From the IMG/VR virus record IMGVR_UViG_2562617151_000006: a DNA stretch of 9,989 nt, one strand, 5' to 3'. The translations under genes were made by a program, and so were the position numbers. Each line of letters opens with the position of its first letter. Within the stretch, counting starts at the first letter, position 1. Origin of the DNA: a virus (Duplodnaviria; Heunggongvirae; Uroviricota; Caudoviricetes). Below are positions 2,070 through 9,989 of this stretch, in pieces. The notes beneath the pieces were generated by a model. That model was not told where the DNA came from. It ran no database searches and saw nothing but the letters and a program-made list of their open reading frames with translations.

Positions 2070-2303
2070 ATGAAATCAAAAGACACCCTAAAGTGGTTCC
2101 CTGCGCAGCTTCCTGAAGTCAGAATTATCCTAGGGGATGCTGTAGTGGAAGTAGCAAAACAGGGAAGACCTATCAATACCAGAACATTGCTTGATTACAT
2201 TGAAGGAAACATAAAGAAAAAATCATGGCTGGATAACAAAGAATTATTACAAACAGCGATATCAGTTCTTAAAGACAACCAAAATTTAAATGGTAAAATG
2301 TAA
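2070..2303 (+). CDS. ydfK: Cold-shock-inducible prophage protein YdfK/YnaE family (77 aa)
   Basis: ORF track 2037-2303. Preferred start is ATG 2070 (MKSKDTLKWF...) because it has an AAGGA Shine-Dalgarno 9 nt upstream, giving 77 aa. Sequence recalled as the YdfK/YnaE family of Qin/Rac prophages. Confidence 0.75.
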   Translation: MKSKDTLKWFPAQLPEVRIILGDAVVEVAKQGRPINTRTLLDYIEGNIKKKSWLDNKELLQTAISVLKDNQNLNGKM

Positions 2304-2619
2304 TATAATAAACTTACTTTTTTATCATTTTTCCACTTTAACAACATTTTGCTCCACTTTTCCACGACCAAACAACTTGAAATCTGGTTAAAATAACACG
2401 CAACACTATTCTTCTTCCTTGAGTCCGCCCGGAACTCGAAAAACAAACCGAGTTAAAGCCATTTTTCACAAAATCGATTTTGGGTCTCACCAAAGTTACG
2501 GGGTTGCATACGCATTCGTTTATTTTCGAACGTGTACATACAAATATGCACAAAAATAATCAAAATTATTTTCTGAGATGCATTATGATATGAACACCAA
2601 TTTCGTATAGAGTCTCACT

Positions 2620-3210
2620 ATGTCTCGAATTTTTGCTTACTGTCGGATATCAACGCTGGATCAGACCACCGAAAATCAACGCCGGGAAATCGAAAGTGCA
2701 GGTTTTAAAATCAAACCTCAGCAAATAATCGAAGAACACATTAGCGGCTCAGCAGCAACCAGTGAGCGTCCTGGTTTTAACCGGTTGCTTGCTCGCCTGA
2801 AATGTGGTGATCAATTGATTGTGACAAAACTGGATCGCCTTGGTTGTAATGCAATGGATATCAGGAAAACAGTGGAACAACTGACCGAAACAGGTATCAG
2901 AGTGCATTGCTTAGCATTGGGGGGCATTGACCTGACCAGTCCAACAGGAAAAATGATGATGCACGTAATTTCAGCAGTCGCTGAATTTGAACGAGACCTT
3001 TTACTTGAACGCACTCATTCCGGGATAGTAAGAGCCCGCGGCGCAGGGAAACGTTTTGGTCGACCACCTGTGTTAAATGAAGAACAGAAACAGGTGGTAT
3101 TCGAACGAATTAAGTCAGGTGTAAGTATAAGTGCCATTGCCCGGGAATTCAAAACCTCGCGGCAAACCATTTTAAGAGCCAAAGCAAAACTTCAGACACC
3201 TGACATATAA
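2620..3210 (+). CDS. pinQ: Serine recombinase, Gin/Hin/Pin-family DNA invertase (196 aa)
   Basis: N-terminal catalytic motif YCRISTLDQ (active-site Ser), resolvase-type catalytic domain and C-terminal HTH ([16 protein letters not shown]). Size and sequence are typical of Pin/Gin invertases. Confidence 0.9.
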
Positions 3211-7075: not shown

Positions 7076-7288
7076 TCAAAGCGCCACTACATGAACAGCG
7101 GCAGGACCTTTAGGTCCGTTCTCAATACCAAATTCAACTTCCTGATTCTCAGTTAATGTTTTGAAATCGTTGCTCTGAATTGCTGAGAAATGGACAAACA
7201 CATCTTTGCTGCCATCTTTCGGCGTGATGAAACCAAAACCTTTTTCAGGGTTAAACCATTTCACTAAACCAGTCATTTTGTTAGACAT
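7076..7288 (-). CDS. cspI: Cold shock protein, CspA family (70 aa)
   Basis: [38 protein letters not shown]... carries the RNP1 (KGFGFI) and RNP2 (VFVHF) motifs of the cold-shock domain. AAGG Shine-Dalgarno upstream. Recalled as CspI of Qin. Confidence 0.9.
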
Positions 7289-7430: not shown

Positions 7431-7650
7431 CAGAACACCATTAACGCATGATTAACCACCCATAGCAAGGATTACTTTTGTAAAGAAAAACACAGCAATG
7501 AAAGAATAGCTTTATTTATTAATAAAACGTGTCATTCTGATTAAGACCTTTTATCTTACCCTTAAGATTTCAGGAATTTTGGCTCATGGAAGAGTCCTTT
7601 TTATTTAAATTTTACATTCCGCGATGTAAATGTTCCGATTTAATATTACC

Positions 7651-8674
<1,024 letters not shown>

Positions 8675-8678
<4 letters not shown>

Positions 8679-8986
8679 AGATATTTATGATGAGGACGCT
8701 CGTGCTTATTGGCAGGATTTTCAATCTTAAAGGAGTACTGATGCTGCAGATAAGACTCAACTTTTTCTGACAATTTTTCTGCTACTTCCAGGAAGACTTG
8801 CCGGACGCTCCTTCTGGCTGCTGCCTCATAAAACTCCAGCGCAGCTCCTTCAACACGGTCCATGGCGACATCCAGGTCAAAAATTTCACCGTCAAAGCGT
8901 TCTTTGTCCTGTAAGGCTACAGTTACCGTAACTTTATTCTCAAAATTACGGACTCCTTTCACAACCAGTTCATAGTCTTGAGTCAT
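8675..8986 (-). CDS. ydfR: DUF1327 family protein of unknown function, located between holin and endolysin genes (103 aa)
   Basis: 103-aa ORF with no transmembrane segment, acidic and helical. Recalled as YdfR. Tightly packed: 4 bp after essQ, and its stop overlaps the rrrQ start. Confidence 0.8.
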
Positions 8987-8990
8987 TGGA

Positions 8991-9206
8991 TTACTCTCCT
9001 CTCGCAGCCTTACGCCTGTCTTCTTTAATCTTGAAATAAAGATTTGTCAGATACGTCAGCAGGCCAAAAACCAGGCTACCCAGCACACCGATTGCAGCCC
9101 ACTGTGACGGAGTTACTTTATCGAGTAACTGCAATGCCCAGAAACCAGCATTACCCGCCGATGTGCCATAGGCAACACCTGTTGTTAACTTATCCATTGA
9201 TTTCAT
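8991..9206 (-). CDS. essQ: Class II holin, phage 21 S21-like pinholin with dual-start motif (71 aa)
   Basis: [28 protein letters not shown]...[18 protein letters not shown] has two transmembrane domains, an MKSM dual start (Met1/Met4) and a charged C-terminus, matching the recalled S21 pinholin. The track's extension to 9281 adds an unlikely 25-aa N-terminal arm. Confidence 0.85.
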
Positions 9207-9425
9207 ATCCTCACCCCGATGTACACGGATGGTGCAATATGTTTGAAAAGATCGGAGTCTACGGGGTAGTTTTGACAGCACACGTTGTTCTCAACGGCGC
9301 TAAAAAAACATACACATTAAAAATGTGGGTAATTATTTTGAAAGAAAGTCATATATAAAATAATAATACGAGAAATGTTTTCATATTTAGTGTACTGTAT
9401 ACGGCCATTTATACAGGAAAAGCCT

Positions 9426-9596
9426 ATGTCAGAACGTAAAAACTCAAAATCACGCCGTAATTATCTCGTTAAATGTTCCTGCCCAAACTGCACCCAAGAG
9501 TCAGAACACAGTTTTTCAAGAGTACAAAAAGGTGCCCTTTTGATCTGCCCTCATTGCAACAAAGTATTCCAGACAAATCTTAAAGCTGTAGCCTGA
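9426..9596 (+). CDS. ynfU: Small zinc-ribbon protein (CxxC-x18-CxxC), 56 aa; possibly YnfU
   Basis: ATG 9426 with AGGAAA Shine-Dalgarno 6-7 nt upstream. MSERKNSKSRRNYLVKCSCPNCTQ...ICPHCNKVF has four Cys in two CxxC knuckles. Gene name is from uncertain recall. Confidence 0.5.
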   Translation: MSERKNSKSRRNYLVKCSCPNCTQESEHSFSRVQKGALLICPHCNKVFQTNLKAVA

Positions 9597-9655
9597 TTGA
9601 TTTTATTAGTAACAAGTATTTTTTATATTTTAATAATATATTTAAAGCAGATAAT

Positions 9656-9679
9656 AAAAAACCCGCCTGAGCGGGTTTG
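9656..9679. terminator. Bidirectional-looking intrinsic terminator hairpin
   Basis: AAAAACCCGC-CTGA-GCGGGTTT: a 6-8 bp GC-rich stem with 4-nt loop, flanked by an A-tract upstream and T-tract downstream. The T-run is stronger on the minus strand (TTTTTATTAT). Confidence 0.6.
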
Positions 9680-9744
9680 AGATTGTGGTGCTTTTTGTGG
9701 GAGTCATCCACTTACGCACTTTGTTTTGCCATGCCAGCAGTTAG

Positions 9745-9989
<245 letters not shown>

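Follow-up and report, generated by a model that had tools for sequence, protein, structure and literature searches.

The stretch of DNA analysed here, hereafter the window, comprises the 9,989 nucleotides (nt) of a Caudoviricetes sequence deposited as IMG/VR record IMGVR_UViG_2562617151_000006. Its minus strand carries a complete lambdoid late-lysis cassette between positions 7651 and 9206, in which the gene ydfR is placed between the holin gene and rrrQ, the gene of the endolysin R (feature coordinates are collected in Table 1). The Pfam scan matched the 103-amino-acid (aa) product of ydfR to PF07041 (DUF1327) with 179.9 bits and E=1e-53, covering positions 1-93 of the 93 in the model against a cut-off of 25, and the product equals UniProt YDFR_ECOLI letter for letter. 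RefSeq labels the same DNA as ydfR and gives rrrQ and rzpQ as its flanks; the window cassette is a Qin-type prophage cassette. Gene, family and location had all been annotated before, and the sole functional lead is a published one. Our analysis indicates that ydfR codes for a genuine protein under selection, from a very small family restricted to phages, and that it occupies the translation start signals that serve the endolysin in related cassettes.

Junctions, translation signals and protein

The holin TAA is separated by four nucleotides (TCCA) from the ATG of ydfR, with GAGAGGAGAG lying among the last codons at the holin 3' end, and the TGA of ydfR overlaps the ATG of rrrQ as ATGA. A sequence-only reading of the window had proposed a 103-aa open reading frame (ORF) set between holin and endolysin and tightly coupled to both. 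The exact ORF, its minus strand and both of its neighbours were confirmed, and the two junctions bear out the coupling. The last ~12 nt of the ydfR tail are a remnant of a conserved R leader.

Over the 22 nt preceding each start, pairing with the anti-Shine-Dalgarno of the 16S sequence was computed. The value for ydfR (Qin) was -11.7 kcal/mol, and the DUF1327 gene of BP-4795 reached -8.6 kcal/mol, as did R in VT2phi_272, a phage devoid of ydfR. In the seven ydfR-positive cassettes tested, R paired with only -1.2 to -3.8 kcal/mol in every case, the window rrrQ giving -1.2 kcal/mol. VT2phi_272 is a 933W-like phage with the same holin family and an R 90% identical, and its R begins 4 nt after the holin stop, which is the start slot of ydfR. 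The DUF1327 gene occupies the ribosome-binding site of R, leaving R without one. Since ydfR uses the same Shine-Dalgarno and start slot as R in ydfR-less cassettes, its product is synthesised as soon as late translation sets in.

Compared with the canonical phage 21 and 933W cassettes, the PF04971 holin, the PF00959 lysozyme, Rz and Rz1 of the window are ordinary members with a like order and like overlaps, and VT2phi_272 has the same 4-nt spacer behind its holin. The window differs in having an extra ORF in the endolysin's start slot and on its Shine-Dalgarno, and in having the endolysin pushed downstream without one. Outside the Qin type, a conserved AU-rich leader of ~50 nt stands before R; it reads …TTAACATATCCAGGGATT…CCCTGATAAATATCC, directly followed by ATG, and holds a small inverted repeat. 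A regulatory RNA hairpin in this leader was considered and rejected: the CCAGGG/CCCTG stem is present, but folding was no better than that of shuffled sequences (z +0.3 to +1.1).

Because R is left without a Shine-Dalgarno, ydfR probably affects endolysin translation in cis, whatever its protein does. Translation of ydfR would set that of the endolysin through termination-reinitiation (at the ATGA overlap in the Qin type). The disruption of ydfR is likely to be polar on rrrQ, since the endolysin has been displaced from its Shine-Dalgarno; a deletion or insertion, including the Keio allele, would then alter the endolysin in cis. The Keio ydfR deletion is among the hits of a screen for envelope leakiness based on chlorophenol red-β-D-galactopyranoside (CPRG) (PMC3879167, supplementary files 2 and 5). 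Because rrrQ lacks a Shine-Dalgarno and overlaps the ydfR stop, this phenotype may reflect endolysin expression, with the resistance cassette driving the coupled rrrQ, and not the loss of YdfR. Hence, the cis and trans effects of ydfR need separating in every experiment.

The YdfR protein has an isoelectric point (pI) of 5.6 overall, of 4.6 for residues 1-72 and of 8.1 for the tail. In the AlphaFold2 (AF2) model, three beta strands (residues 5-14, 18-27 and 34-43) are followed by a long helix (residues 50-85) and a disordered tail. The mean predicted local distance difference test score (pLDDT) was 81, with values above 87 for residues 11-80 and of 81-96 over residues 1-80. Thus, of the earlier description of YdfR as an acidic, helical protein, the acidity held, although it is mild, whereas the fold was found to combine three strands with one helix. 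YdfR has no Pfam membrane domain and no hydrophobic segment, and its grand average of hydropathy (GRAVY) is -0.61, features that point to a cytoplasmic protein.

Structure and family searches gave little beyond DUF1327. Foldseek with the YdfR model returned no significant match in PDB or BFVD, the sequence search of PDB returned no match, and neither YdfR nor its neighbours matched NCBIfam. YdfR, one long form of the family and seven neighbouring reverse-strand ORFs were without a match in PADLOC, which covers defence systems and not counter-defence. No similarity to known antiholins or releasins was detected, the Pfam scan having given only PF07041, and neither sequence nor fold homology to known phage RNase E modulators was found when sought. 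T4 Srd and T7 gp0.7 are phage-encoded modulators of this kind.

Position, family and evolution

The genomic context of DUF1327 genes was surveyed by script, using the best 80 loci per scan. The first survey found the 4-nt holin spacer in 167 of 169 redundant loci. After the addition of two extra clades and de-replication, the DUF1327 gene followed an S21-type holin by 3-4 nt in 87 of the 92 distinct configurations. The same was seen in eight annotated phages (PhiR42_1, 2H10, mEp460, Evi, PhiR12_2, Stx2-86, BP-4795 and YYZ-2008) whose proteins span 39-100% identity, where a spacer of 3-4 nt (4 nt in seven of them) separates the holin stop from the gene and a 534-nt lysozyme gene is found downstream. 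The position of the window ydfR is shared by genes annotated as "YdfR family protein" in BP-4795 (ORF47), YYZ-2008, Stx2 phage 86, mEp460 and PhiR42_1. With one exception, the endolysin behind DUF1327 shared 85-100% identity with RrrQ. The five exceptions to the holin spacing were one mutated holin stop, the locus L326 and three tail-cluster loci. At L326 (IMG/VR contig, 2177-3016), DUF1327 stands behind a 101-aa holin-like ORF that is not of the S21 type, with an 18-nt spacer, and is still upstream of an RrrQ-type endolysin.

The position thus holds in Escherichia phages. It had been called unusual, which is correct with respect to lambda and phage 21 only, as the arrangement is common among the lambdoid phages of E. 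coli; at least 80% of window positions 7600-9989 was present in ~1,609 of 5,426 complete E. coli genomes.

We have then considered how often the holin and endolysin occur without ydfR. Searches with tblastn found YdfR in 100 phage records and the S21-type holin family in 438, with R at ≥80% identity in ~356, so that the gene is present at the holin-endolysin spot in about a quarter of related phages. About three quarters of the phage records with the same holin family are devoid of ydfR, as are many records with R at 88-90% identity. When loci were sampled by holin, YdfR stood behind it in 49 of 80, and a different lysozyme (33% identity) abutted the holin in 27. Hence, ydfR is not an obligatory partner of the holin and endolysin pair, and it does not qualify as a core component of the cassette. 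YdfR appears to be dispensable for lysis, since some three quarters of the holin-family records, including those with an R 88-90% identical to RrrQ, lack the gene.

An exhaustive HMMER pass over 1.84 billion representatives retrieved 57 proteins only. When one genome per species was searched, the only hits were in Escherichia coli, E. albertii, E. ruysiae and two metagenome bins, labelled Veillonella parvula and Bacillota, for which mis-binning is probable. A profile-based homologue search had the Escherichia clade at the top and no further distant lineages. The window protein is a member of the YdfR/DUF1327 family (PF07041; PHROGs 34145, 2735, 2091, 406 and 1085), being identical to the K-12 founder.

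Only the ~72 N-terminal residues are conserved across the family (alignments A1-A3, down to 30% identity). The invariant or near-invariant positions are Y5, E6, L7, V9, V21, L50, E51, Y53, E54 and A57, and the corresponding motif set (Y5-E-L-x-V-K, V21 and L50-E-F/Y-Y-E-A) is present in the window YdfR. Beyond this N-domain the tails are unrelated, with ORF lengths that include 72, 103, 104, 114, 116, 176, 183, 211, 268, 287, 296 and 325 aa. Versions consisting of the N-domain only (72-76 aa) were found independently in Evi and in the family members P0139, P0157 and P0159, which argues for the N-domain alone being a functional unit.

Other architectures were noted as well. The 207-aa member P0161 has a tandem duplication of the N-domain within one ORF, and the long forms (268-325 aa) share a coiled-coil-like SEKDDIESRIEKLE segment and a C-terminal region of ~110 aa with no Pfam match; nine long forms gave nothing beyond DUF1327 in Pfam. 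A 296-aa member was modelled with the aim of identifying its C-terminal modules, and the model (pLDDT 42) was unusable. In a protein of 3,128 aa (P0135), six near-identical repeats matched YdfR residues 6-77 with ~30 bits and 29-33% identity; the E-value is inflated by the repetition, and the match, which may be distant homology or a chance similarity amplified by the repeats, was not taken as established homology.

The genomic contexts of the distant homologues were obtained by exact-protein look-ups. P0157 is encoded between gpM-like and gpL-like tail genes, P0159 between gpL-like and gpK-like ones, P0152 between gpI-like and gpJ-like ones, and P0139 directly after the Rz spanin. All four genes are on the late strand, each with its own Shine-Dalgarno, and their tail or spanin neighbours were assigned by PHROG. 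These divergent members lie above the 25-bit cut-off of PF07041, with 51.0 and 49.1 bits for two scanned among P0157, P0159 and P0152. At the P0159 locus (L260), the tail genes are closest to those of Morganella, Pasteurella and Salmonella phages, with 66-70% nucleotide identity. Scans of viral contigs for distant 76-aa homologues found none. The position is therefore not conserved across the deeper branches of the family, though most members by count reside in lysis cassettes.

The ratio of nonsynonymous to synonymous substitution rates (dN/dS) was 0.17-0.44 for the YdfR N-domain, 0.05-0.23 for the holin S and 0.07-0.10 for R, with one close pair in which the N-domain reached ~1.1. Purifying selection on the N-domain supported that the gene is real and selected. 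Between Qin and Stx-type cassettes, the N-domain is 46-47% identical, the holin 77-80% and R 89-90%, and the YdfR protein evolves 3-5 times faster than its neighbours. In Evi and BP-4795 the holins are 97% identical and the YdfR N-domains 43%. Again, the comparison of alleles gave no sign of co-evolution of YdfR with holin or endolysin; YdfR alleles reassort freely against holin alleles.

A variable island next to the endolysin

In 46 of the 92 configurations, the gap from the DUF1327 stop to R contains an ORF of ≥60 aa on the reverse strand; there was no room for one in 40, and a gap without such an ORF in the remaining 6. The reverse ORFs span at least seven unrelated PHROGs (2572, 25324, 1853, 2411, 18136, 18578 and 6806). 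That they could form a single conserved partner family was rejected, since all-against-all BLASTP detected no similarity and they belong to different PHROGs. The tail-located and post-Rz homologues likewise have a reverse ORF downstream. The only recurring pair is a convergent one, made of DUF1327 and a reverse ORF of 182-186 aa (phrog_18578), seen once in the tail genes and once after Rz; its two phrog_18578 copies are 42% identical (E=2e-49). In Mannheimia and Pasteurella phages (L267 and L268), phrog_18578 is found alone between Q and the holin.

Thus, the holin-endolysin junction is a variable cargo slot, with the DUF1327 N-domain as its left edge and the R leader as its right edge. Read from the holin, the island consists of the DUF1327 N-domain, a tail of variable make-up, in some cases an unrelated reverse ORF, and the conserved leader lacking a Shine-Dalgarno, after which comes the endolysin. 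The patchy presence, the use of several late-gene slots and the unrelated reverse-strand cargo alongside are shared with the morons and variable islands of temperate phages. In contrast to a classical moron, no promoter or terminator of its own was detected for ydfR, which sits with its 4-nt spacer in the translation frame of the late operon; no promoter-like site was found on the minus strand between 8986 and 9332. Given the 4-nt gap and the missing promoter, ydfR is not a classical moron and is not expected to be expressed from a repressed prophage.

The remaining genes of the cassette are listed in Table 1. RefSeq labels the holin "essD: phage lysis protein EssD". By inspection of its sequence, RrrQ is assigned to the signal-anchor-release (SAR) type, because its N-terminus is weakly hydrophobic and Gly/Ala-rich and the triad E35-x8-D44-x5-T50 is present. 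Two further ORFs of the window were noted around the cassette. A zinc-ribbon ORF at 9375-9596 (plus strand, probable start 9426) matched Pfam YnfU (PF23499, E=6e-31); it lies between the holin and the insertion sequence IS5, on the strand opposite to the lysis genes, with a promoter-like site at 9338-9367. Just downstream of Rz, at 7076-7288 (minus strand), there is an ORF resembling cold-shock proteins, which fits the reported cold induction of the gene cluster. In PhiR42_1, an intact relative, genes of the cold-shock protein family flank the same cassette on both sides.

Table 1. Coordinates of the features (window positions, unless a locus or protein is named; AF2, AlphaFold2; SAR, signal-anchor-release)
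Feature	Position	Strand	Evidence or remark
ydfR, ATG start, 103 aa, DUF1327/YdfR family	8675..8986	-	ORF, PF07041 and RefSeq annotation
ydfR codons 1-72, conserved N-terminal domain	8771..8986	-	alignments A1-A3, AF2 model, dN/dS
ydfR codons 73-103, lineage-specific tail (helix end and disordered basic stretch)	8678..8770	-	alignments, AF2
ydfR Shine-Dalgarno GCGAGAGGAGAG	8994..9005	-	inside the last holin codons; serves the endolysin in ydfR-less cassettes
Phage-21-type class II holin/pinholin, 71 aa, MKSM dual start	8991..9206	-	PF04971 "Bacteriophage P21 holin S", E=4e-34; phrog_20/9876 holin
rrrQ, 177-aa T4-lysozyme-family endolysin, SAR-like N-terminus	8145..8678	-	PF00959; phrog_7 endolysin
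rzpQ, Rz-like inner-membrane spanin	7651..8148	-	PF10721, phrog_312; start overlaps the R stop
Rz1-like lipoprotein ORF, embedded in rzpQ	7701-7973		phrog_11621
R start region, window	8664-8690		
R start region/leader, L007	2846-2895		
R start region/leader, L005	3280-3329		
R start region/leader, L006	3710-3759		
R start region/leader, L002	3324-3373		
Reverse ORF, L002	3000-3260	- of locus	
Reverse ORF, L004	2744-3040	- of locus	
Reverse ORF, L006	3317-3631	- of locus	
Reverse ORF, L014	3311-3583	- of locus	
Reverse ORF, L139	3464-3739	- of locus	
Reverse ORF, L352	912-1544	- of locus	
DUF1327 and phrog_18578 convergent pair, L260	3001-3821		tail, between L and K
DUF1327 and phrog_18578 convergent pair, L265	503-1328		after Rz
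P0135 repeat matches to YdfR (protein residues)	381-431, 791-861, 1201-1251, 1611-1681, 2021-2091, 2431-2481		G2F-like repeats

Candidate functions of YdfR

The published lead comes from a genomic two-hybrid screen in which RNase G served as bait and ydfR codons 1-72 were recovered (PMC13232886, RNA Biol 2026), a fragment that coincides exactly with the conserved domain defined here. Both this fragment and full-length YdfR prefer the N-terminal catalytic half of RNase E, and Strep-YdfR co-purifies Rne(1-598)-FLAG together with DNase-resistant nucleic acid (PMC13232886). YdfR resembles phiKZ Dip/gp37 (PMC4980113) in its small size, its phage origin and its reported binding of RNase E, and YdfR also co-purifies RNA. 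Its contact with the N-terminal catalytic half is shared with the host adaptor RapZ and not with Dip (PMC13232886). Among the papers searched, none treats DUF1327 in lysis.

Based on these data, the reading that we tentatively favour, while giving it somewhat less than an even chance, is that YdfR is a late-expressed cytoplasmic accessory protein whose N-domain targets RNase E and/or RNA, that its position is a historical insertion slot shared with other cargo, and that its translation feeds the endolysin in cis. In trans, the conserved domain would bind the catalytic N-terminal half of RNase E (and RNase G) and/or RNA. The target of YdfR would then be the RNA metabolism of the host and not the envelope, and YdfR would modulate transcript decay or processing in late infection as other phage RNase E modulators do. 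The apparent dispensability of YdfR for lysis and its tail-operon relatives likewise direct attention to RNA metabolism rather than to the envelope.

Several points weigh against this reading. Overproduction of YdfR altered few transcripts and left growth unaffected (PMC13232886), so that no effect on RNase E activity was shown. The full-length T25-YdfR fusion gave a two-hybrid signal only with Rne 1-597 (PMC13232886), and the co-purification from lysate could have been bridged by RNA. The RNA-metabolism part draws on this one interaction study. The cis coupling, for its part, is deduced from the sequence only, and it cannot operate in those cassettes that have 50-450 nt between the DUF1327 stop and R. 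Moreover, in Escherichia phages the gene was never seen away from the holin-endolysin junction and is nearly always paired with one endolysin type, a fixed position and pairing that stay compatible with a lysis-related function in trans.

Such a function had been suggested by the sequence-only reading, which saw in the placement of ydfR a role in lysis timing or endolysin handling. In its trans-acting form, YdfR would be a cytoplasmic partner of the basic C-tail of the pinholin or of the SAR endolysin stub, tuning triggering or release. The near-absolute position in Escherichia phages (87 of the 92 configurations, with L326 showing it behind a different holin) and the RrrQ-type endolysin downstream in all but one case agree with this role, as do the charges: the N-domain is acidic, the holin C-tail has a pI of 10.3, and R begins with MNTKIR. 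There is also a precedent in Mu gp22/gp25, where basic residues of the SAR-endolysin stub bring about dependence on an accessory protein (PMC9239132). The Mu gp25 releasin and the cytoplasmic antiholin T4 RIII are, like YdfR, small non-enzymatic proteins in or near a cassette with a SAR endolysin and a basic stub. However, a releasin is defined by an N-terminal transmembrane anchor and a DUF2730 domain (PMC9239132), and neither was found in YdfR by Pfam scan and hydropathy; YdfR differs further in appearing dispensable and in having homologues outside lysis cassettes, in tail operons or after Rz. The gene is missing from phages that have the same holin family and an R 88-90% identical, and its alleles reassort, with N-domains down to 43-47% identity where the holins are 79-97% and R 89-93% identical. 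The Keio mutant scored in the CPRG screen (PMC3879167), but we infer that a resistance cassette driving the coupled rrrQ explains this more simply. Overexpression gave no growth phenotype (PMC13232886), though the Qin lysis genes are silent under those conditions. What stands of the suggestion is thus the fixed position and the link in cis to the endolysin Shine-Dalgarno; the dispensability, the tail-operon relatives, the allele reassortment, the missing membrane segment and the RNase E data speak against the rest, and we consider a trans-acting lysis regulator unlikely.

The features of the island would also be accounted for if YdfR were cargo of a hypervariable accessory island, serving for instance counter-defence or host manipulation unrelated to RNase E, with its position being a tolerated slot. 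The presence of the gene is patchy among close relatives, the family uses at least five insertion slots (between S and R, after Rz, and between M and L, L and K, and I and J), and the protein evolves 3-5 times faster than its neighbours, up to the pair with a dN/dS of ~1.1. The adjoining slot holds the seven or more unrelated reverse-strand ORFs, and the pair with phrog_18578 recurs in two contexts with reverse ORFs 42% identical. Yet phrog_18578 also occurs alone in the Mannheimia and Pasteurella phages, neither YdfR nor its neighbours matched PADLOC (from which counter-defence is absent) or NCBIfam, and the 4-nt gap and lack of an autonomous promoter set ydfR apart from a classical, prophage-expressed moron. 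We regard the proposal as doubtful.

Another alternative would have the window ydfR as a functionless, decaying remnant, truncated from an ancestor of ~296 aa and kept solely for the ribosomes that its translation delivers to the endolysin start. Modular forms of 176-325 aa do exist, and the Qin form consists of the N-domain and an unrelated tail that extends into the final ~12 nt of the R leader. The Qin prophage is defective, with an IS5 upstream of the cassette in this window. Almost no ydfR transcripts were seen in K-12 (PMC13232886). Against decay, the same 103-aa form is found, at 97-100% identity, in the deposited genomes of PhiR42_1, HannyBb and mEp460_ev081, purifying selection acts on the N-domain, and the 72-76-aa versions of Evi, P0139, P0157 and P0159 exist independently. 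Furthermore, expressed YdfR is stable and binds partners (PMC13232886). We therefore judge a mere remnant very improbable.

The quantified positional survey, the tail-operon members, the takeover of the endolysin Shine-Dalgarno and the structure of the variable island are the additions made here. They refine the design of experiments rather than describe a new kind of system, and their payoff is modest. They concern a gene that counts among the uncharacterised ones of E. coli K-12, with a YdfR-family gene being present in many records of Stx1a and Stx2c phages. Should the link to RNase E hold, YdfR would give an example, from temperate phages, of a late-expressed protein that binds RNase E at its catalytic domain. 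As a long shot, YdfR might even be a phage-encoded, RapZ-like RNA adaptor, through which the endolysin message would be controlled post-transcriptionally, in its processing or translation; the holin:endolysin ratio, and with it lysis timing, would follow from this. If true, pinholin-SAR cassettes would possess a further, new layer of lysis control, and the homologues in tail operons would play the same part for other late messages.

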